From Actinomycetota bacterium (lineage in GTDB: Bacteria; Actinomycetota; UBA4738; JBBDHU01): a stretch of DNA of 64,000 nt. The stretch spans positions 315,573 to 379,572 of the forward strand of contig JBBDHU010000001.1 of the NCBI GenBank assembly GCA_040880705.1. Direction: 5' to 3'. Each line of letters starts with the position of its first letter. Positions within the stretch are counted from its first letter, which is position 1. Position numbers and translations under genes: made by a program. The notes beneath the pieces are model-generated. The model saw only the letters and a program-made list of their open reading frames with translations, did no database searches and was not told the origin of the DNA. Positions 26,178 to 36,226 of this stretch are shown here, piece after piece.

Positions 26178-26206
26178 TTGACCGGGGCCGGGGAGCCGCG
26201 TAAACT
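26178..26206 (+). promoter_or_regulatory. Putative sigma70-type promoter of the ilvB leader (TTGACC, 17-nt spacer, TAAACT)
   Basis: TTGACC 26178-26183, 17-nt spacer, TAAACT 26201-26206. The same geometry and -10 box occur upstream of the leuA leader. Confidence 0.4.
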
Positions 26207-26217
26207 TGCTGGTTACG

Positions 26218-26277
26218 ATGCAGAATTCGGGCATGTCTCGCACAGCAACGCGGCCGGCCCTGGTACTTATTCCGTAG
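26218..26277 (+). CDS. Putative ilvB leader peptide MQNSGMSRTATRPALVLIP (branched-chain codon run L-V-L-I before stop)
   Basis: 19-codon ORF starting about 12 nt after the -10 box. Ends with four consecutive Leu/Val/Ile codons. Lies between the promoter and an intrinsic terminator, upstream of ilvB. Confidence 0.45.
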   Translation: MQNSGMSRTATRPALVLIP

Positions 26278-26308
26278 GCGCGACGGGCTGCATCGGCCTG
26301 CGCGCCAA

Positions 26309-26332
26309 CCCCTCGATCCGAGGGGTTTTTTT
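26309..26332 (+). terminator. Intrinsic terminator / attenuator hairpin upstream of ilvB
   Basis: CCCCTCG atc CGAGGGG stem-loop followed by TTTTTTT (26326-26332), 50 nt before the ilvB RBS. Confidence 0.55.
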
Positions 26333-26385
26333 GTACCCAAGCGCGAGCACCGGTGAAACCGTCAAATGAGAGGAGGAGGCGCGTC

Positions 26386-29722: not shown

Positions 29723-30859
29723 TTACGTGAGGGACTGCACAACTCCGGTTAGGTCTGTGTAGCGAACTCTTGCCTTGCCGGCCAGGCCGCGATCAAAGGA
29801 GGGCTCGACTACGGGAGCGACGACGAAGCTCGCTCCCTCCCGGTAGGCCCGTCGGAAGGCATTCAGCCCGCCAAGCGACTCGCGCCCGTCGACGCGCCAT
29901 TTGCACTCGATCGCGATCGGCGGGCGGCCGCGCCGGTCGAGGACGAAGTCGACCTCGGCTCCTTTGGTTGTGCGCCAGTACTGGATCTTCCCGACGCCGG
30001 GCGTGGACTGCAGCTCGTTCAGGACGTAGTGCTCCCACAGGACGCCCGCGTCATCGGGACGCGAGGCCGTCCAGCCGTTCAGCACGCAAACGAAGCCGGT
30101 GTCGAACCCGTAGACCTTTGGGGCGCGAGTGAGTTCGTTCGACCGGTTGCGCGAGTACGGCGTGATCACGTGCGCGACTTTCGTGAGTTCCAGTACGGAC
30201 AGGTAGTTGGACACCGTTGGGCGGCTAGCCTCGATCGGACCGGCGAACGCGGTTGCCTCGAAGATCCCGCCGCTGCGCGCGAGGACCATCTCCACCAGAC
30301 GCTGGAACGAGCTGCGACGTTCCAGGCGAAAGAGTTCCTGGATGTCGCGGGACCAGTACGCGTCCAGCCATTCCTGGACGTCGGACTCGGGCAGGCCTGC
30401 GAGATAGGAGGCGGGGAGCCCTCCTCGCTCAAGACGCTGCTCCAACGAGCCGCCCGCCGCTGCGCGGTCGGCCTCGTTCATGGGCGTGAGCCACAGCTCC
30501 TCCTTTCGCCCGGCGAGGGAGTCCCGGAACCGGTCGGCCGCTTGGAGCGTCGATGAGCCCGTGGCCACTATGTGGGTGTCGGGGAAGTGGTCTGTCGCGA
30601 TCTTCAGCAACTCGGCCGGATCCGGGAGGCGGTGCACTTCGTCGAGCGCCAGCCGCTGGCCTCGGGTCGCGGCCAGGAACGACTCCGGATCGGCGAGAGC
30701 GCGCCGGACGCTGGGAAGTTCGCAGTCCAAATAGCGCACGTCCGGGAGGGACTTCACCAGTACCGTCTTGCCTGCTCGCCGGACTCCGGTGAGCCAGACG
30801 AGCGATCGGCGCTCCCAGGCATGCTCGATGCTATCGGCCCAGTGCTCCCTGCGGAACAT
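29723..30859 (-). CDS. AAA+ ATP-binding protein of the PF13173/DUF4143 family
   Basis: Walker A GVRRAGKT. Walker B-like hydrophobic stretch plus DE. C-terminal DUF4143-like region. 378 aa. Opposite strand to the flanking ilv/leu genes. Confidence 0.75.
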   Translation of the reverse strand: MFRREHWADSIEHAWERRSLVWLTGVRRAGKTVLVKSLPDVRYLDCELPSVRRALADPESFLAATRGQRLALDEVHRLPDPAELLKIATDHFPDTHIVATGSSTLQAADRFRDSLAGRKEELWLTPMNEADRAAAGGSLEQRLERGGLPASYLAGLPESDVQEWLDAYWSRDIQELFRLERRSSFQRLVEMVLARSGGIFEATAFAGPIEASRPTVSNYLSVLELTKVAHVITPYSRNRSNELTRAPKVYGFDTGFVCVLNGWTASRPDDAGVLWEHYVLNELQSTPGVGKIQYWRTTKGAEVDFVLDRRGRPPIAIECKWRVDGRESLGGLNAFRRAYREGASFVVAPVVEPSFDRGLAGKARVRYTDLTGVVQSLT

Positions 30860-30868
30860 GCAGGTAGT

Positions 30869-30914
30869 CTTGCATATTCTGCCCGGAATTGCAATCTGAG
30901 TTGCATATTATGCC
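30869..30914. repeat. AT-rich direct repeats CTTGCATATTCTGCC / GTTGCATATTATGCC flanking ATTGCAATCT, immediately upstream of the ATPase gene
   Basis: Two 14/15-nt near-identical direct repeats plus a related TTGCAAT core in a locally AT-rich patch. Confidence 0.3.
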
Positions 30915-31386
30915 AGGCCTTGCGGGCGGGCTTGGGGCTGATTAGCTTTGCCCGCGTGAGACTCCGTACGGTGGTCCGAAAAGTTGGACTGATGAGCAGG
31001 CCGGCGCTCTCGGTCCGGCTCGCCCCGGATTCGACTTGGGCCATTCGCTGGTGGCGTCGGCCACGAGCGGGGCGGTCGCAGCAACGCTCCTATTCATCGT
31101 CGTGTTGCGCGCGCGAGGGCTTGTGCGCACCGGCCCGGCCGTAGTCGCCGGCCTTTTCACACTCTTGCCCCTGCTCGCCCCGGGAATCGGTCCCCTCGCC
31201 GTCGCCGGGCTGCTCATCCTCGCCGTGGACGTGTGCATCCCGCGACCGCCTCTCCTGAGGCCGCCCCGGTCGGGAAGTGAGCGTGAGCGGCGGTACGGCG
31301 CTCCCTTAGTGACCTCGGAACGGTTTGCGGATACCCTGAGCGGCGGGTGGTTCCCGCCCGACCGACGAGCTTGGGGAGGGGAGCGG

Positions 31387-31881
31387 ATGTCCATCCCGCA
31401 GGAAGGGTATGCCCTCGGTCCGGACGACGGGGAGGCATTGTGGTTCAACGGTGGACTAGCCGTGCTGAAGGCGACGGCGGAGAGCACCGGTGGCCGCTTC
31501 GCGGCTGTGGACTTTCGCGTGCCGAAAGACTTCGCGTCACCCCTGCACATCCACCGCGCCGAGGACGAGTTCTTCGTCGTGCTCTCGGGCGAGGTGCGGG
31601 TGCGTCACGGCGACGAGGTCATCGAGGCGGAGGCCGGCTCCATCGTCTACGGCCCTCGCGATGTTCCGCACGGGTTCCGGGTCGACTCACCGGAGGCCCG
31701 CCTGCTGTTGTTCTTCGGTCCCTCCGGGGTCGAGGGGTTCTTCCGGGACGGCGGGAAGCCGGCCGGAGGCGTTCACCTGCCCCCGCCCGACGAACAGTTC
31801 GTGGACAAGGAGGTGCTCACGGAGATCGCCACGGGGTTCCAACAGGAGTTCATAGGACCACCCCTCCCCCCGAAGGAGTGA
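31387..31881 (+). CDS. Cupin-domain protein (cupin_2 / quercetin-dioxygenase-like)
   Basis: Start MSIPQEG after GGGAGGGGAG. Cupin motifs PLHIHRAEDEFFVVLSGEV and VYGPRDVPHGF. The tracked ORF (31036..) adds a 117-aa hydrophobic N-terminal extension that may or may not be real. Confidence 0.6.
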   Translation: MSIPQEGYALGPDDGEALWFNGGLAVLKATAESTGGRFAAVDFRVPKDFASPLHIHRAEDEFFVVLSGEVRVRHGDEVIEAEAGSIVYGPRDVPHGFRVDSPEARLLLFFGPSGVEGFFRDGGKPAGGVHLPPPDEQFVDKEVLTEIATGFQQEFIGPPLPPKE

Positions 31882-31888
31882 AACCGGG

Positions 31889-31916
31889 TTGACACATCGC
31901 CTGACCTGCGTAAACT
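31889..31916 (+). promoter_or_regulatory. Putative sigma70-type promoter of the leuA leader (TTGACA, 16-nt spacer, TAAACT)
   Basis: TTGACA 31889-31894, 16-nt spacer, TAAACT 31911-31916. Leader ATG follows 10 nt after the -10 box. Confidence 0.45.
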
Positions 31917-31926
31917 GACTTTTACC

Positions 31927-31980
31927 ATGCAGACCAAGGGCGACCAGACGCACGCGCACGGCCTGCTGCTTATCCGATAG
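31927..31980 (+). CDS. Putative leuA leader peptide MQTKGDQTHAHGLLLIR (three consecutive Leu codons then Ile)
   Basis: 17-codon ORF between the promoter and a terminator hairpin upstream of leuA. The control codons are Leu-rich. Confidence 0.5.
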   Translation: MQTKGDQTHAHGLLLIR

Positions 31981-32011
31981 GCGCACGCGGGCCTTGCCCT
32001 GCGCGCGCCGA

Positions 32012-32034
32012 CCCCTCCACGCGAGGGGTTTTTT
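32012..32034 (+). terminator. Intrinsic terminator / attenuator hairpin upstream of leuA
   Basis: CCCCTC cacgc GAGGGG followed by TTTTTT, 20 nt before the leuA GTG start. Confidence 0.55.
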
Positions 32035-32055
32035 CATGTCCGGAGGTGACAAGAG

Positions 32056-33615
32056 GTGAGCGAGAACCAAGTGCGGTTCTTCGACACGACGCTGCGCGAC
32101 GGCGAACAGGCGCCGGGCATCGCGCTGACGCGTTCCGAGAAGGTCGAGATCGCGGAGCAGCTCGCGCGCCTCAACGTCGACATCATCGAGGCCGGCTTTG
32201 CCATATCGGGCGAGGGCGAGTTCGAGGCCATCCGCGAGATCGCGTCAAGTGTGCGAGGCCCCGTGATTTGCTCGCTCGCCCGCGTGACGCCGGGCGACAT
32301 CGACCGCGCTGCGGAGGCGCTGAAGGGCGCCGAGCGCTGGCGGATCCACACCTTCATATCCACGAGCGACATACACATGCAGGACATGTTGCGAATGTCG
32401 AACAACCAGGTGCTGGATTCGATCCGCGACGGCGTCAAGCACGCTGTCTCCTACACCGACGACGTCGAGTTCTCGGCTCAGGACGCCACGCGAACCGAGC
32501 TGGACTTCTTGCTGGAGTGCTTCAAGGTCGCCGTGGACGCGGGCGCGACAACGATCAACGTTCCCGACACGGTCGGCTATGCGATGCCGCACGAGTTCGG
32601 CGAGCTCGTTCGAGTAGTTCGTGAACAGACTCCCGACAACGTGATCATCTCGACTCATTGCCACAACGATCTCGGCCTGGCCGTGGCAAACGCGCTGGCC
32701 GGCGTCGTGAACGGTGCACGGCAGGTGGAGGTCGCCGTCAATGGGATCGGCGAGCGGGCCGGGAACTGCTCTTTGGAAGAGGTCGCGATGATCGTTCGGA
32801 CGCGCGGCAAGACGCTCGGCGTACGCCACAACCTCAAAACCAAGGAGATCATGCGAACCTCACGTCTTGTATCGATGACCACCGGCTACACGGTGCAGCA
32901 GAACAAGGCCGTGGTCGGCTCGTCGGCGTTCGCGCACGAATCGGGAATCCATCAGCACGGCGTGCTCTCCAACCGCGCCACCTACGAGATCATGGATCCG
33001 CTCGAGATCGGGTTGGAAGGCAACCGCATCGTTCTGGGCAAGCACTCGGGGCGCCACGCGTTCGACGACGCGCTTCACAAGATGGGCTACGACCTGGACA
33101 AGGACTCCTTGAACCACGTGTTCGGGCGGTTCAAGGAGCTGGCCGATCGCAAGATCGAGCTGACCGACCAGGACCTCGAGGCGATCGTGTCCGAGGAGGC
33201 CGGGAAGCGAAAGCGGGTTGCGGCAGCCGACGAATGGGTCATCGAGGAACTCGAGTTCACCGGCGGAACGGACCTGTCTCCCAAGGCGAAGGTTCGAATG
33301 CGCCGCGGCGAAGAAGTGATCGAGGACTCCGCGAAGGGCAACGGGCCGATCGATGCCGTGTGCACGGCGGTTCAAAGGGCCACGGGGGTCTTCGCGAAGC
33401 TCATCACGTTCAACGTTGCGGCCATCACCGGGGGCACCGACGCTCTCGGCGACGTGGTGGTGCAAGTCGAGATCGACGGCCGGCGGGTGACCGGCCGCGG
33501 AGTCTCGGTGGACACTGTGGAGGCATCCGCGCTCGCCTACCTGGCCGCGATCAACCGCTCGATTCAGGTCGCGGCGGCGGAGGACGACACCTCCTCTGCG
33601 GAAAAGACGCCGTGA
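32056..33615 (+). CDS. leuA: 2-isopropylmalate synthase
   Basis: GTG start after GGAGG. FDTTLRDGEQAPG HMGL-like TIM-barrel signature. HCHNDLGLAVAN. C-terminal LeuA dimerisation/regulatory domain. Confidence 0.9.
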   Translation: MSENQVRFFDTTLRDGEQAPGIALTRSEKVEIAEQLARLNVDIIEAGFAISGEGEFEAIREIASSVRGPVICSLARVTPGDIDRAAEALKGAERWRIHTFISTSDIHMQDMLRMSNNQVLDSIRDGVKHAVSYTDDVEFSAQDATRTELDFLLECFKVAVDAGATTINVPDTVGYAMPHEFGELVRVVREQTPDNVIISTHCHNDLGLAVANALAGVVNGARQVEVAVNGIGERAGNCSLEEVAMIVRTRGKTLGVRHNLKTKEIMRTSRLVSMTTGYTVQQNKAVVGSSAFAHESGIHQHGVLSNRATYEIMDPLEIGLEGNRIVLGKHSGRHAFDDALHKMGYDLDKDSLNHVFGRFKELADRKIELTDQDLEAIVSEEAGKRKRVAAADEWVIEELEFTGGTDLSPKAKVRMRRGEEVIEDSAKGNGPIDAVCTAVQRATGVFAKLITFNVAAITGGTDALGDVVVQVEIDGRRVTGRGVSVDTVEASALAYLAAINRSIQVAAAEDDTSSAEKTP

Positions 33616-34664
33616 ATTCCTATCGCATCGCCGTCATCCCCGGCGACGGCACCGGCCCGGAAGTCATCCGCGAGGGCTGCAAGGTTCTAGACGCCGTCTC
33701 GGGCGGTTCCAAGCTGGATTGGGTGGACTACGACCTCTCGGGTGAGCGTTACCTTCGCGACGGTACCGTCCTCCCCGACGAGACGCTCCAGGAACTTCGG
33801 GCGATGGATGCGATCTATCTGGGCGCGGTCGGACATCCCGACGTCCCGCCCGGCGTGATAGAGCGGGGACTGTTGCTGAGATTGCGCTTCGGGCTGGACC
33901 AGTACGTGAACCTTCGCCCGGTCGTTCGCTATCCGGGCGTGCAGACACTCATTCCGTCACACGGCGACGACGACGTCGACTTCGTCGTGGTGCGCGAGAA
34001 CACCGAGGGACTGTACGTCGGCGCCGGCGGATTGTTCCGCAAGGGCGCGCCGCAGGAAACGGCAATCCAGGCCAGCGTGAACAGCCGGTTCGGCGTCGAG
34101 CGAATCATTCGCTACGCGTTCGAATACTCGAAGCGCCCCGACAGGCGCAAGCACGTCACGATGGTTCACAAGACCAACGTGTTGAACTTCGCCGGCGATC
34201 TCTGGTCGCGAGTGTTCGCGGAGGTCGCATTGGAATACCCGGACGTGGACACGGCTTACGTCCACGTCGACGCTGCGTGCATCTACTTCCTGGATTCTCC
34301 GCAACGATTCGACCTGATCGTCACGGACAACATGTTCGGCGACATCATCACCGACCTCGGAGCGATGATCCAGGGCGGCATGGGCGTAGCTGCGGGCGGC
34401 AACATCAATCCCGAGGGCGTCTCGATGTTCGAGCCGATCGGCGGAACGGCGCCGTCCGAGGTGGGGAAGGGCACTATCAACCCGATAGCGGCGATCGCCG
34501 CCGGGGGGATGATGCTCGACCAGCTCGGCGAAGCCGGCGCGGCGGCGCGGGTAGACCGCGGGGTGCGGTTCGCGGTATCGAAGATGGCCTCGATGGCTGC
34601 CGGCCAGATGGGCTACTCGACGAGCGAAGTAGGCGACCTGGTGGTGGAGGGGGCGTCGCGATGA
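33612..34664 (+). CDS. leuB: 3-isopropylmalate dehydrogenase
   Basis: GTG start overlapping the leuA stop (GTGA). IAVIPGDGTGPEV, NMFGDIITDLGA, GGTAPSEVGKG. The track shows a 318-aa spurious upstream extension. Confidence 0.9.
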   Translation: MNSYRIAVIPGDGTGPEVIREGCKVLDAVSGGSKLDWVDYDLSGERYLRDGTVLPDETLQELRAMDAIYLGAVGHPDVPPGVIERGLLLRLRFGLDQYVNLRPVVRYPGVQTLIPSHGDDDVDFVVVRENTEGLYVGAGGLFRKGAPQETAIQASVNSRFGVERIIRYAFEYSKRPDRRKHVTMVHKTNVLNFAGDLWSRVFAEVALEYPDVDTAYVHVDAACIYFLDSPQRFDLIVTDNMFGDIITDLGAMIQGGMGVAAGGNINPEGVSMFEPIGGTAPSEVGKGTINPIAAIAAGGMMLDQLGEAGAAARVDRGVRFAVSKMASMAAGQMGYSTSEVGDLVVEGASR

Positions 34665-36226
34665 ACGTCGAGCTTTACGACACCACGCTTCGCGACGGGG
34701 CGCAGCGCGCCGGTCTCTCGTATTCCATCGAGGACAGGATGCGGATCCTGCATAAGCTAGACGAGCTTGGGTTTCCGTATGTCGAGGGCGGATGGCCCGG
34801 CGCGAACCCCCGCGACACGGAGTTCTTCCGGCTCGCGACCAAGGAGAAGCTCAAGAACGCGCAACTCACCGCGTTCGGAATGACTCGAAAGGCCGGGGAG
34901 AAGGCTGCCGACAGCCCTGTGCTCCGGGATCTCATCGATGCCGGAACAGAGACCGTGTGTCTCGTCGGGAAGTCCTGGGACCTGCACGTCACCGAGGCGC
35001 TCCGAACCGACCTGAAGGAAGGCGTCCAGATGGTCGCCGATTCGATCGCCTTTCTCGCAAACGAAGGCCGGCGTGTTTTCTTCGATGCCGAACACTTCTT
35101 CGACGGCTATCGAAACAACCTCGAATACGCGATGGAGGTGCTTCGAGCCGCGGAGGATGCAGGCGCCGAGCGCCTCGTCCTTTGTGACACCAACGGAGGG
35201 TCGCTCCCCGCGGGCATCTCACACGTGGTTGCCGCGGTGCGCGATACCGTCGAAGCACCGCTGGGAGTTCACGTTCACAACGACACGGGGTGCGCCGTTG
35301 CCGGATCGCTGGTCGCCGTCGAGGCCGGGGCGCTTCAGGTTCAGGGGACCATCAACGGCTACGGCGAGCGCTGCGGCAATGCCGACTTGGTCCCGATCGT
35401 CGCCGACCTGCAGCTGAAGATGGGCGTCGAGTGCTTGCCGCAGGAATCCATCGGACGCCTGACCGAGCTTTCCCACTTCGTCGCCGAGGTCGCCAACGTC
35501 ATCCCCGAGGCGCACCAGCCTTACGTCGGCCGCTACTCGTTCACTCACAAGGCGGGGTTGCACACGGCGGGGGTGGCACGCCTGACGGAGGCTTACGAGC
35601 ATGTTCCGCCGGAATCCGTTGGGAACCATCGCGGAGTCGCCGCGTCGGATCTCGGGGGGAAGGCGACGCTTCTCATGAAGGCGACGGAGCTGGCGATCGA
35701 CCTGGATGAGAAGTCGATCCCTTCGATCCTGACCAGGTTGAAGGAGCTGGAAGCGAAGGGCTACACGTTCGAGGCGGCCGACGCGTCGCTCGAGTTGCTG
35801 ATGCGCCGCGACATGGGATGGGAACAGGACTGGTTCAGCATCGAGAGCTTCCGGGTGACCGTCGACGAATGGGAAGGGGCCGGAGTTCAGGCGGAGGCCA
35901 CCGTGAAGGTCCACGCGGCCGATGAGCGCCACCTCGCGACGGCCGAAGGAGCCGGCCCGGTCGGCGCCCTCGACAACGCGTTTCGAAAGGCCGTCGGGCA
36001 GATCTATCCGGAGTTGGAGTACATAGAGCTGACCGACTACCGAGTGCGCGTCCTGGACACGAAATCGGGGACCGGGGCGGTCGTTCGCGTGCTGATCGAT
36101 TCGTCTAACGGCGAGCGGGAGTGGACCACGATCGGCGTCTCGGAGAACATTATCGAGGCATCGTGGGAGGCGCTCCAAGATTCGATCGTCTTCGGGCTCC
36201 TGCATCCGCGTGAGCACGCGGCCTAG
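34661..36226 (+). CDS. cimA: LeuA-family paralog, citramalate synthase-like (CimA/LeuA_rel)
   Basis: ATG overlapping the leuB stop (ATGA). YDTTLRDGAQRAG, HVHNDTGCAVAGS. C-terminal LeuA_dimer-like domain. 521 aa. Confidence 0.8.
   Translation: MNVELYDTTLRDGAQRAGLSYSIEDRMRILHKLDELGFPYVEGGWPGANPRDTEFFRLATKEKLKNAQLTAFGMTRKAGEKAADSPVLRDLIDAGTETVCLVGKSWDLHVTEALRTDLKEGVQMVADSIAFLANEGRRVFFDAEHFFDGYRNNLEYAMEVLRAAEDAGAERLVLCDTNGGSLPAGISHVVAAVRDTVEAPLGVHVHNDTGCAVAGSLVAVEAGALQVQGTINGYGERCGNADLVPIVADLQLKMGVECLPQESIGRLTELSHFVAEVANVIPEAHQPYVGRYSFTHKAGLHTAGVARLTEAYEHVPPESVGNHRGVAASDLGGKATLLMKATELAIDLDEKSIPSILTRLKELEAKGYTFEAADASLELLMRRDMGWEQDWFSIESFRVTVDEWEGAGVQAEATVKVHAADERHLATAEGAGPVGALDNAFRKAVGQIYPELEYIELTDYRVRVLDTKSGTGAVVRVLIDSSNGEREWTTIGVSENIIEASWEALQDSIVFGLLHPREHAA

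Follow-up and report, generated by a model that had tools for sequence, protein, structure and literature searches.

The question raised by this locus is how leuA, leuB, and the citramalate synthase gene cimA are controlled in the stretch of 64,000 nucleotides that we analyzed (hereafter the window), where leuA has an upstream region of its own. NCBIfam matches bore out the gene set that the original prediction had placed there, with ilvB/N/C upstream of the leuA leader and leuA (NF002086, 1.8e-213), leuB (NF002898, 3.4e-148), and cimA (TIGR00977, 3.1e-203) downstream of it.

Anatomy of the region upstream of leuA

Reading of the sequence delimits a single unit at 31889-32034, made up of a TTGACA-16-TAAACT promoter, a 17-codon near-leaderless ORF, and a GC hairpin followed by T6 (Table 1). 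The stem-loop of this hairpin, GACCCCTC-CACGC-GAGGGGTT, occupies 32010-32030 and its run of 6 T residues 32029-32034. These are the parts that had been predicted, and all of them were found where they had been placed, except that the GTG start codon of leuA lies 21 nt after the T-run and not 20 nt as claimed. Although the promoter, the ORF, and the terminator of the earlier anatomy thus stood, it left out a second hairpin, P2, and named no antiterminator. P2 begins at the G of the leader stop codon and adjoins the terminator without a spacer.

Table 1. Features of the leuA leader, its downstream genes, and the ilvB leader of the same window.
Feature	Positions	Strand	Basis
Sigma-70-type promoter: -35 TTGACA (31889-31894), 16-nt spacer, -10 TAAACT (31911-31916)	31889..31916	+	Sequence
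Putative very short 5' UTR (ACC)	31924..31926	+	-10-to-ATG spacing in the family; C. glutamicum analogy
Leader ORF, 17 codons and TAG, peptide MQTKGDQTHAHGLLLIR then stop	31927..31980	+	Sequence, family alignment
Candidate control codons CTG CTG CTT ATC (Leu-Leu-Leu-Ile), then one free codon and TAG	31963..31974	+	Family comparison
Hairpin P2, GGCGCACGCGGGC-CUU-GCCCUGCGCGCGCC, about -22 kcal/mol, 30 nt, GC-rich	31980..32009	+	Folding
Intrinsic terminator, GACCCCUC-CACGC-GAGGGGUU, 8-bp GC-rich stem, U-run 32029-32034	32010..32034	+	Scan, folding
leuA Shine-Dalgarno GGAGGTGA (32042-32049) and GTG start codon (32056-32058)	32042..32058	+	Sequence
Genes proposed to be regulated: leuA (32056-33615), leuB (~33615-34664), cimA (~34667-36226)	32056..36226	+	NCBIfam
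Paralogous ilvB leader: TTGACC-17-TAAACT; ORF 26218-26277, MQNSGMSRTATRPALVLIP then stop; P2 26277-26306; terminator 26307-26327 and T7	26178..26334	+	Scan, folding, covariance model

A consensus scan of both strands between 25.5 and 38.5 kb returned 2 promoter-like sites, which are exactly those of the leuA and ilvB leaders (shuffle mean 1.1). The two best terminator-like sites in the same interval were likewise the terminators of these two leaders, whereas terminator-like sites as a class were not enriched there (6 found, 7.6 expected). The promoter pattern TTGAC(A/G/C)-N16-18-TAnnnT was present at a constant distance from the leader ATG in nearly all members of the leader family, the exceptions being the -35 sequences TTGCAG in the L087 group and TTTACA in L083. 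The leader ATG lies 9 to 11 nt after the end of the -10 hexamer in every member (10 nt in the leuA leader of the window), and many members have an A located 7 to 8 nt past the -10. Together with the analogy to Corynebacterium glutamicum, where the IlvL leader MTIIRLVVVTARRLP has no ribosome-binding site and is translated from a transcript beginning 1 nt upstream of the start codon (PMC11857589), this spacing suggests that transcription probably starts at A31924, giving a near-leaderless mRNA with no Shine-Dalgarno sequence ahead of the leader ORF. The ORF itself reads atg cag acc aag ggc gac cag acg cac gcg cac ggc ctg ctg ctt atc cga tag. Further downstream, the AGGAGGTGA motif and the GTG start of leuA are kept in the four related contigs described below.

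A leader family shared by ilvB and leuA

The window contains a second unit of the same build upstream of ilvB, whose start codon is probably ATG 26386; the leuA leader lies 5.7 kb downstream of this copy. The ilvB leaders of the clade end in LVLIx or LVVIx before the stop codon, and they carry the TAG-GGCGCG...CGCGCC hairpin and the terminator as in the leuA leader. We built a covariance model, R1, on both leader types (ilvB and leuA) and searched 653 kb with it. This search gave 22 strong matches (E < 1e-12), exactly 2 of which were in the window, where R1 scored both leaders at 72-73 bits (72.8 bits for the ilvB copy, matched at 26257-26333). All 22 were located directly upstream of ilvB (or of a small ORF preceding ilvB) or of leuA in the sense orientation, and none elsewhere. 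As judged from their sequences, the leuA leader and the ilvB leader are paralogous copies of one module. The architecture that the original prediction described as shared is real, with a genuine ilvB twin that has the TAAACT -10 hexamer, the ORF, and a hairpin with T7, but the two leaders are not independent inventions. The leuA element has the hairpin and terminator architecture of the ilvB-leader family and is not located directly upstream of ilvB; because it is sited upstream of leuA, we regard it as a paralogue with a new target and not as an ilvB leader. An Rfam scan of the whole window at gathering threshold detected only a SAM-I/IV riboswitch, elsewhere, and no leader, T-box, or riboswitch at the locus. 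In a permissive scan of 31700-32200 (E <= 10), the sole match was to anti-hemB, a chance terminator-like one at 14.7 bits (gathering score, 49.5).

The promoter and terminator delimit a discrete short transcript, and there are accounts of attenuator-derived sRNAs and leader peptides with functions in trans in Sinorhizobium, so the unit might mainly encode a trans-acting product, either a small RNA of ~110 nt or a 17-residue peptide, its place before leuA being incidental or secondary. The confinement of the strong R1 matches to the upstream regions of ilvB and leuA argues against this, as do the lack of conservation of the peptide outside the control codons and the fact that leuA would be left without another promoter. 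Among the explanations that we weighed, we consider this one the least likely.

The same leader stands before leuA in 5 independent contigs, the window and 4 contigs from related uncultured Actinomycetota (L002, L086, L105, and L106). Their peptides (MQTKGDQTHAHGLLLIR, MQANGSATRTSAASLLLIV, MQTKGSFSGFAAFGLLLIV, MQTKGIRINHAASGLLLIR, and MQTNGSRTSTPAAGLLLIA, respectively, each followed by a stop codon) are all encoded by an in-frame ORF ending in (G/S)-L-L-L-I-x-stop, after which the same hairpin and terminator follow, whereas the 5 contigs have unrelated genes upstream of the promoter. A small ORF with Leu codons was thus found in 5 of the 5 genomes in which leuA has its own upstream region, leaving the original prediction unrefuted, and both the Leu codon run and the terminator, the conservation of which it had left to a covariance-model or alignment comparison of leuA upstream regions, are conserved. 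About 70 relatives have a leuA that overlaps or adjoins ilvC and lacks its own leader; the leuA leader was seen only where insertions part leuA from ilvBNC. The split-off leuA genes would otherwise be without a promoter and without branched-chain amino acid (BCAA) control. In the Solirubrobacterales relatives L079 and L080, the leuA leader has the look of a LEU element (see below).

The peptides of the family differ in the N-terminal part of the ORF, which is variable, and the ORF lengths are 54, 57, or 60 nt, always in frame and differing by multiples of 3, whereas the end of the ORF, CUU-AUY-NNN-UAG-GCGC, is invariant with a free NNN codon. The three Leu codons followed by Ile that had been predicted at the C-terminus of the peptide read as CTG CTG CTT ATC and are kept in the five genomes. 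All 5 leuA-type leaders have LLLI, while the ilvB-type leaders of the clade use the rare Val codon GUA in LVLI, LVVI, or LVLLI. The replacement of this Val codon by Leu occurs only in the leuA copies, and L086 has both leader types, with LVVI before ilvB and LLLI before leuA. This lends support to the predicted division between Leu-specific and Ile/Val/Leu sensing. In six genes of the window, CTT makes up 14% of the Leu codons, GTA 3.3% of the Val codons, and ATT 5.5% of the Ile codons, and the rare GTA and ATT codons are both used in the ilvB leader of the window. Counting against such sensing by the leuA leader, its CUG and AUC codons are common ones and CUU alone is a minor codon, and the Ile codon, which is still present, is a poor fit to purely Leu-specific control.

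The leuA element has a promoter-proximal ORF with a cluster of codons for the end product and an intrinsic terminator before leuA, as expected of the attenuator class. From these comparisons and from the analogy with tested attenuators, we estimate a probability of roughly 0.8 that it is a Leu(/Ile)-sensing leader-peptide transcription attenuator for leuA-leuB-cimA, copied from the ilvB attenuator of the lineage with a change of the Val control codon to Leu. Alternatively, the region could be a constitutive promoter with a leaky terminator or insulator, for instance against read-through from inserted upstream genes, with a small ORF that is incidental and no sensing of amino acids. A short stop-free stretch is not rare in DNA of 64% GC, and the folding results given below, in which the terminator forms in every state and no overlapping antiterminator was found, would suit such an arrangement. 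However, the L-L-L-I-x-TAG end stays invariant across the 5 leuA leaders against an otherwise drifting ORF whose length changes by threes, and the Val-to-Leu change follows the regulated gene even inside one genome. Moreover, the genes upstream of the leuA leader in L086 are on the opposite strand, leaving no read-through to stop, and the putatively homologous Mycobacterium tuberculosis element is codon-dependent by mutagenesis. We therefore consider the insulator explanation very improbable.

Hairpin P2, the terminator, and a proposed switch

P2 and the terminator fold in every member of the family. On a model-based alignment of 18 sequences, 98.2% of the cells were paired, compared with 33-58% in slid controls; a MAFFT-based alignment placed the P2 apex poorly. 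The terminator stem covaries in relatives (CCCUCCGC/GCGGGGGG in L097 and GCCCCUCGC/GCGAGGGGC in L099), but covariation is modest overall, with changes on both sides in 3 of 19 pairs, because the leader family is young. P2 has an invariant base (GGCGCG/CGCGCC), present also in the ilvB leaders of Nocardia, Tsukamurella, and Nonomuraea, and an apical half and loop that vary freely, with no conserved unpaired nucleotides. The position of P2 fits the footprint of a ribosome, such that the hairpin is intact with the ribosome stalled at the first or second control codon (L1/L2) and its 5' arm is covered when the ribosome is at the stop codon. P2 is thus presumed, on this modelling, to be a ribosome-sensed hairpin in the position of an antiterminator.

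Attenuation would then proceed as follows. Transcription would start a few nt before the leader ATG, and a ribosome would load on the near-leaderless mRNA and translate the 17-codon ORF as RNA polymerase moves on through P2 and the terminator. At low levels of Leu-tRNA (or Ile-tRNA), the ribosome would stall with its A site on CUG-CUG-CUU-AUC, and its front edge, ~12 nt past the A site, would halt at or just within the foot of P2. P2 would then fold and more polymerases would read through into leuA. When charged tRNA is plentiful, the ribosome would reach UAG and cover ~11 nt of the 5' arm of P2, preventing its formation, and without P2 the terminator hairpin and U-run would release the transcript 21 nt before leuA. 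Both translation of the leader ORF and ribosome stalling are presupposed here. The direction of the switch is borrowed from the attenuators of ilvB1 in M. tuberculosis and ilvBNC in C. glutamicum, which have been tested, and by the same analogy read-through should rise on starvation for the cognate amino acid.

We analyzed this switch by folding every leader with a ribosome at the stop codon and at each of the control codons, and also as transcripts truncated ahead of the terminator 3' arm. RNAfold gave no structure that excludes the terminator, which always formed with the simulated ribosome on L1, on the fourth control codon (I4), or on the stop codon. Forbidding the terminator 3' arm cost 10-20 kcal/mol in all ribosome states, and the terminator 5' arm was free in the L1/V2 states. 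P2 and the terminator have no nucleotide in common, as is also the case in the ilvB leaders of Nocardia, Tsukamurella, and Nonomuraea, and for this reason ordinary base-pair exclusion fails to account for antitermination. A duplex between the 5' arms of P2 and the terminator was rejected as a general mechanism, being short and unconserved; alternative pairings of the P2 5' arm (e.g., GAGCGGG:CCCCUC in L081) appeared in some sequences only and in the I4/x states only. Inspection by eye likewise led us to reject, for want of conservation between the leuA and ilvB copies, a duplex of the two 3' arms (P2 and terminator), a P2 that extends into the terminator, and pairing of the terminator with the control codons or with the mRNA 5' end.

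The conserved RNA, chiefly P2, might instead be bound by a small ligand or a regulatory protein, a role suggested at one time for the actinobacterial LEU element, with the ORF being secondary. The invariant base of P2, common to the ilvB leaders of distant actinomycetes, could be seen in this light, as could the failure of base-pair exclusion to account for antitermination, and so could codon mutants of the Streptomyces coelicolor ilvB and leuA leaders, which are ambiguous in that, as cited in PMC1262725, they behaved otherwise than classical attenuation predicts. A binding pocket is, however, difficult to place in a hairpin whose apex and loop vary freely and that has no conserved unpaired nucleotides, no Rfam family matches the element, and the change from Val to Leu codons before leuA would be left unexplained. 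We regard binding at P2 as even less probable than an insulator.

Within the attenuation model, our best guess for how an intact P2 lowers termination is steric. P2 may act as a non-overlapping antiterminator, a rigid helix of 12-14 bp at 0-1 nt from the foot of the terminator that blocks completion of the terminator stem inside RNA polymerase (exit channel), although we hold this to be a tentative and rather doubtful proposal. A ribosome on the stop codon would melt P2 into a flexible single strand and thereby restore termination. Alternatively, P2 may mainly be a pause hairpin that synchronises ribosome and polymerase. The layout in which P2 abuts the terminator is kept from the deep uncultured lineage to Nocardia, Tsukamurella, and Nonomuraea. 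If true, steric antitermination would explain why, since 2005, actinobacterial ilvB leaders have appeared to lack antiterminators, and it would constitute a second physical way to couple translation to termination.

Relation to known leaders and significance

In the enterobacterial leuL leader, a short ORF with consecutive Leu codons precedes an intrinsic terminator ahead of leuA, and the element described here shares both the logic and the target of that leader. The Escherichia coli leu leader has a Shine-Dalgarno sequence, four Leu codons in the middle of the peptide, and overlapping protector, pre-emptor, and terminator stems. There was no Rfam match of the leuA element to Leu_leader (RF00512) at gathering threshold or at E <= 10, and no similarity in sequence or structure.

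A further likeness is to the M. tuberculosis ilvB1NC leader, which we compared by its published description only. Both have a short upstream ORF (uORF) ending in a Leu/Val/Ile block (including the rare GUA in the ilvB copies), a hairpin whose 5' arm a ribosome at the stop codon would cover, a Rho-independent terminator ahead of the first gene, and a leader of ~110-126 nt to the end of the U-run. By that description, the M. tuberculosis element is essentially the ilvB twin of the window (LVLI) and the leaders of L086 and L098 (LVVI), while the element under study lies before leuA and has LLLI in place of LVVI. The regulatory codons of the M. tuberculosis uORF are LVVI (GUA), and changing LVVI to AAAA abolishes induction (PMC13236596). 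The ribosome at the stop codon is proposed to mask an anti-terminator described as mutually exclusive with the terminator (PMC13236596), whereas P2 and the terminator here are adjacent and non-overlapping.

As stand-ins for M. tuberculosis, we took the leaders of Nocardia, Tsukamurella, and Nonomuraea from chromosome-sized "plasmid" records. Exact-protein look-ups supplied the ilvB leaders at the loci of the genome-collection scan, which its 3-kb flank did not reach. In Rhodococcus (L102) and Streptomyces (L103), the matches are to secondary copies on plasmids, with no recognisable leader. The three stand-in leaders have the same order of control codons, GGCGCG...CGCGCC hairpin, and abutting terminator, but their ORF is 5-6 codons longer and runs through the hairpin arm, whereas the stop codon here is at the very start of the arm. 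The best R1 match in the Nonomuraea locus was its ilvB leader, a weak match of 12.5 bits (E ~0.12).

The C. glutamicum ilvBNC leader shares a near-leaderless leader peptide, BCAA control codons, and a terminator with upstream hairpins, and, according to PMC11857589 citing Morbach et al. 2000, ilvBNC expression goes up when any BCAA is limiting. It differs in its length (292 nt), in a three-hairpin model whose antiterminator overlaps the terminator, in control codons located in the middle of the peptide, and in having ilvBNC as its sole target. The usual actinobacterial leuA leader is the LEU element, which has a Leu codon run in a small ORF (Seliverstov et al. 2005, PMC1262725) and is defined by pairing of this run with the leuA Shine-Dalgarno sequence, a pseudoknot, and the lack of a terminator (PMC1262725). 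The leuA leader described here differs from it in having a terminator, and pairing of its Leu codons with the Shine-Dalgarno sequence (-13.2 kcal/mol) was rejected because shuffled sequences gave -11.7 +/- 2.7 kcal/mol and 132 of 500 shuffles were as good.

Altogether, the leuA leader would be a regulator of an ordinary, if neat, kind: the ilvB control unit of the same genome, copied and re-tuned. Most relatives have one LVLI-type leader for the whole ilvBNC-leuA string; where mobile cargo has split leuA off, the whole module reappears before leuA with Val changed to Leu, which makes this leader a clean natural example of attenuator duplication with what would be a re-specified sensing. The tested mycobacterial and corynebacterial type of ilvB attenuator would thereby extend to an uncultured deep branch of the Actinomycetota, and leuA in this phylum would not always be under a LEU element. 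For annotation, two unannotated small ORFs and two conditional terminators would explain the expression of the ilv and leu operons.

Anatomy of the leuA leader and its kinship with the ilvB leader

The leuA leader lies within the gene order ilvB-ilvN-ilvC ... leuA-leuB-citramalate synthase (NCBIfam). Direct reading of the sequence showed that the promoter, leader ORF, GC hairpin, and T6 run of the original prediction are all present, with the T-run close to the leuA GTG but at 21 rather than 20 nt. The prediction overlooked a second GC-rich hairpin, P2, whose first base is the G of the leader TAG and whose last base touches the terminator stem. The leader ATG has no preceding Shine-Dalgarno sequence, and its spacing from the -10 element implies a putative 5' UTR of about 3 nt. 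[quoted passage not shown]

Features of the leuA leader (window coordinates; asterisk, stop codon)
Feature	Position	Strand	Remarks
-35 TTGACA	31889-31894	+	read from sequence
-10 TAAACT	31911-31916	+	16 nt beyond -35, read from sequence
Leader ORF MQTKGDQTHAHGLLLIR*	31927-31980	+	ATG 31927, 10 nt past -10
Hairpin P2	31980-32009	+	30 nt, GC-rich, about -22 kcal/mol, from folding
Terminator hairpin GACCCCTC-CACGC-GAGGGGTT	32010-32030	+	read from sequence
T6 run	32029-32034	+	read from sequence
leuA GTG start	32056	+	preceded by GGAGGTGA; 21 nt after T-run

In a consensus scan covering both strands of 13 kb, only two promoter-like sites emerged, before leuA and before ilvB. The two leader terminators were its top two terminator-like sites; as a class, such sites were not enriched. 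Upstream regions of ilvB in relatives, recovered by exact-protein look-up and a pattern scan, have the promoter TTGACA-N16-18-TAnnnT (with a few -35 variants), an ATG 9 to 11 nt further on, and leader ORFs of 54 to 60 nt ending in L-V-L-I-x, L-V-V-I-x, or L-V-L-L-I-x. The G of TAG opens a GGCGCG...CGCGCC hairpin and the terminator follows immediately 3'. Many relatives (L084, 1205-1504; L095, 893-1204; L096, 899-1204; L097, 887-1204; L099, 881-1204; also L087-L094) have a conserved ORF of about 99 to 107 aa (MRYEFDKQDRKVGWAQWEGPGQVALEM...) between this terminator and ilvB, with a 4-nt overlap at the start of ilvB. No Pfam match was found for the single copy scanned (L084), and the ORF is not present in the window.

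A covariance-model search was run with a model trained on both leader types. It returned 22 matches with E < 1e-12 in 653 kb, each an ilvB- or leuA-type leader, and exactly two in the window: 26257-26333 (72.8 bits) and 31960-32036 (71.8 bits). In the model-based alignment, standard pairs occupied 98.2% of cells versus 33-58% when partners were slid by 1 to 3 columns. Changes on both sides occurred in 3 of 19 pairs. Such modest covariation is expected, given that the family is young and its stem bases are invariant. Individual folds showed P2 apical helices that differ yet remain complementary (CGGGCC/GGCCUG, CAGACC/GGUCUG, GGGGCG/CGCCCU, and GGCGGA/UCCGCU). This free variation of the apex and the absence of conserved unpaired bases argue against an RNA that binds a protein or ligand. 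The placement of the copies contradicts a gene for an sRNA or peptide acting in trans, because every strong one is sense-oriented and directly precedes ilvB (or its preceding small ORF) or leuA. The leuA element is most likely an actinobacterial ilvB-type leader-peptide attenuator that was copied to leuA after an operon split.

Control codons of the leader peptides

Leader ORFs differ in length by whole codons only. The N-terminal two thirds of the peptide drifts freely, but CUU-AUY-NNN-UAG is invariant, with NNN free at all three positions. The Val codon of ilvB-type leaders is always GUA; in six window genes, GUA makes up 3.3% of Val, AUU 5.5% of Ile, and CUU 14% of Leu codons. The sole systematic difference between the leader types is a change from Val to Leu, found in 5/5 leuA copies, and one contig (L086) carries both types (...FLVVIR* before ilvB and ...GLLLIV* before leuA). 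This change is in line with the suggested Leu-specific sensing at leuA versus Ile/Val/Leu-specific sensing at ilvB; it fits a switch from Leu/Val/Ile to Leu(/Ile) sensing and would be unlikely to arise from an incidental ORF. Conservation at the level of codons and a Val-to-Leu change specific to the gene both contradict a constitutive promoter followed by a leaky terminator, with the ORF incidental, and a binding RNA would leave the codon switch unexplained. Jointly, the leaky terminator, the binding RNA, and the trans-acting gene appear improbable.

A pairing is predicted in each of the five leuA-type leaders between AUGCAG(A/G)CC, at the 5' end, and (G/A)GCCUGC, at the first Leu codon (31927-31971 in the window; the same region in L002, L086, L105, and L106). 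The conserved 'MQT/MQA' start may be due to this predicted pairing, which is reminiscent of H1, a hairpin in the C. glutamicum model.

Distribution of leuA leaders among relatives

A LeuA scan with one genome per species produced 80 loci, all from uncultured Actinomycetota. At approximately 70 of these, leuA either overlaps ilvC or comes immediately after it (e.g. ...ATGCCTGA...), so that ilvBNC-leuA forms a single string and leuA lacks a separate upstream region. P0235, an 870-aa protein on a 163,878-bp contig of one MAG, is a gene call fusing IlvC and LeuA domains, which probably results from the overlapping junction, or may be a real fusion. At the ilvC 3' end of L038 (~2880-2990), gagcgggtgggtggggac(gag) is repeated three times in tandem, giving a repeated (E)RVGGD C-terminal extension before leuA; shorter forms occur in L024, L029, L033, and L046.

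Among the 80 loci, L002 alone has a window-like leuA upstream region: its promoter spacing and terminator are those of the window, it has a P2 hairpin, and its ORF is MQANGSATRTSAASLLLIV*. Three further leuA leaders, L086 (MQTKGSFSGFAAFGLLLIV*), L105 (MQTKGIRINHAASGLLLIR*), and L106 (MQTNGSRTSTPAAGLLLIA*), were obtained by scanning metagenome contigs for the pattern and by looking up the LeuA homologues nearest to the window's. Orthologous regions lacking a small ORF with Leu codons had been named as evidence against the attenuator; these relatives keep the ORF. The genes upstream of the L002 leader (a MazG-like protein and a 628-aa DUF2075-like protein) are unrelated to those of the window. 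Because upstream genes are unrelated among the leuA-leader loci, conservation spans exactly from the -35 element to leuA, whatever lies upstream.

The cargo at the ilvC-leuA junction differs between the window, L002, and L086. In the window (29723-31881), an AAA_14/DUF4143 ATPase (minus strand) and a cupin separate ilvC from the leader; in L086 (7928-8667), a PIN/VapC and AbrB-type toxin-antitoxin pair on the opposite strand lies between them. The L002 cargo is at 546-2798, with ilvC outside the 3 kb covered and its position unconfirmed. The junction looks like an insertion hot spot, tolerable thanks to the independent leuA promoter and leader.

A neighbor-joining tree built on the N-terminal 195 residues of LeuA places the leuA-leader genomes that it covers (the window, L002, and L086) in one clade. 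L001 falls inside this clade yet shows the ancestral overlap of ilvC and leuA, which makes the trait patchy there. L001 LeuA (N-terminus MPDP) is nearest to that of L002, the two being 95% identical across these 195 aa; given this closeness and the ancestral overlap, the leader was gained, lost, or exchanged by recombination in a very shallow clade.

Proposed mechanism and comparison with known leaders

The relatives' leaders, the paralogy with the ilvB leader, and the codon switch support the original attenuator reading, and we consider ribosome-mediated attenuation the probable function of the leuA leader (about 0.8). Assuming that a ribosome covers ~12 nt of mRNA past the leading base of its A-site codon, stalling at control codon 1 or 2 would leave P2 intact, a ribosome at codon 3 or 4 would fray 2 to 5 P2 base pairs, and one on UAG would cover 11 nt of the P2 5' arm. 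By analogy with the logic of tested relatives, intact P2 would allow read-through and melted P2 would lead to termination.

P2 and the terminator share zero nucleotides. In RNAfold, all simulated ribosome states retained both hairpins, and loss of the terminator costs 10-20 kcal/mol whatever the ribosome position. Only short alternative pairings of the terminator 5' arm were found, none conserved, and the ilvB leaders of Nocardia, Tsukamurella, and Nonomuraea likewise have no conserved pairing competing with the terminator. The conserved trait is instead that the two hairpins abut: in 23 distinct leaders, the P2-terminator spacer is 0-1 nt (22 leaders) or 4 nt (one), and in every case P2 exceeds the terminator in stability (-20 to -32 vs -13 to -21 kcal/mol). 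We infer that P2 is coupled to the terminator. Our preferred guess is steric, in that a rigid helix tethered to the base of the terminator stem would impede full formation of that stem inside the RNA exit channel; alternatively, P2 could act as a pause hairpin. That a non-overlapping steric antiterminator is common to actinobacterial ilvB-type leaders seems doubtful.

No Rfam family matched the leuA leader; the sole Rfam match in the window is a SAM-I/IV riboswitch aptamer (RF01725, 43926-44046, plus strand, 49.1 bits vs a gathering score of 41.1). Seliverstov et al. [quoted passage not shown] The leuA leader was rejected as a LEU element because it fails this pairing definition. Two Solirubrobacterales loci, L079 (~2840-2960) and L080 (~225-345), have different Leu-rich leaders upstream of leuA (VRLSLELLRLLLPPRGE* and MSFGLSLSLLLLLPPRGE*), with a CCCCCCUCGGGGGG hairpin within the ORF, that resemble the LEU element and not the ilvB-type module.

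In M. tuberculosis, the ilvB1 leader gives a terminated transcript of ~120 nt, its uORF has the regulatory codons LVVI (GUA), changing LVVI to AAAA abolished induction, and a stop-codon ribosome was proposed to mask an anti-terminator (2026, PMC13236596). Chromosome-sized records of three classical actinomycetes provided the ilvB leaders of Nocardia farcinica (MNRNELLVIGRRVQR*), Tsukamurella (MKHSNQLLVIGRRVNA*), and Nonomuraea (MLRSEILVVLRRRAGR*). The best covariance-model match in the Nonomuraea locus was the ilvB leader, weakly (12.5 bits). All three have a GGCGCG...CGCGCC hairpin just past the control codons that ends 0-1 nt before the terminator, and this shared layout indicates that the architecture is phylum-wide. 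Compared with them, the leader ORF of the window clade is shortened, with its stop codon at the hairpin foot. Judged from its codons, the leuA copy has probably been re-tuned from Leu/Val/Ile to Leu(/Ile) sensing.
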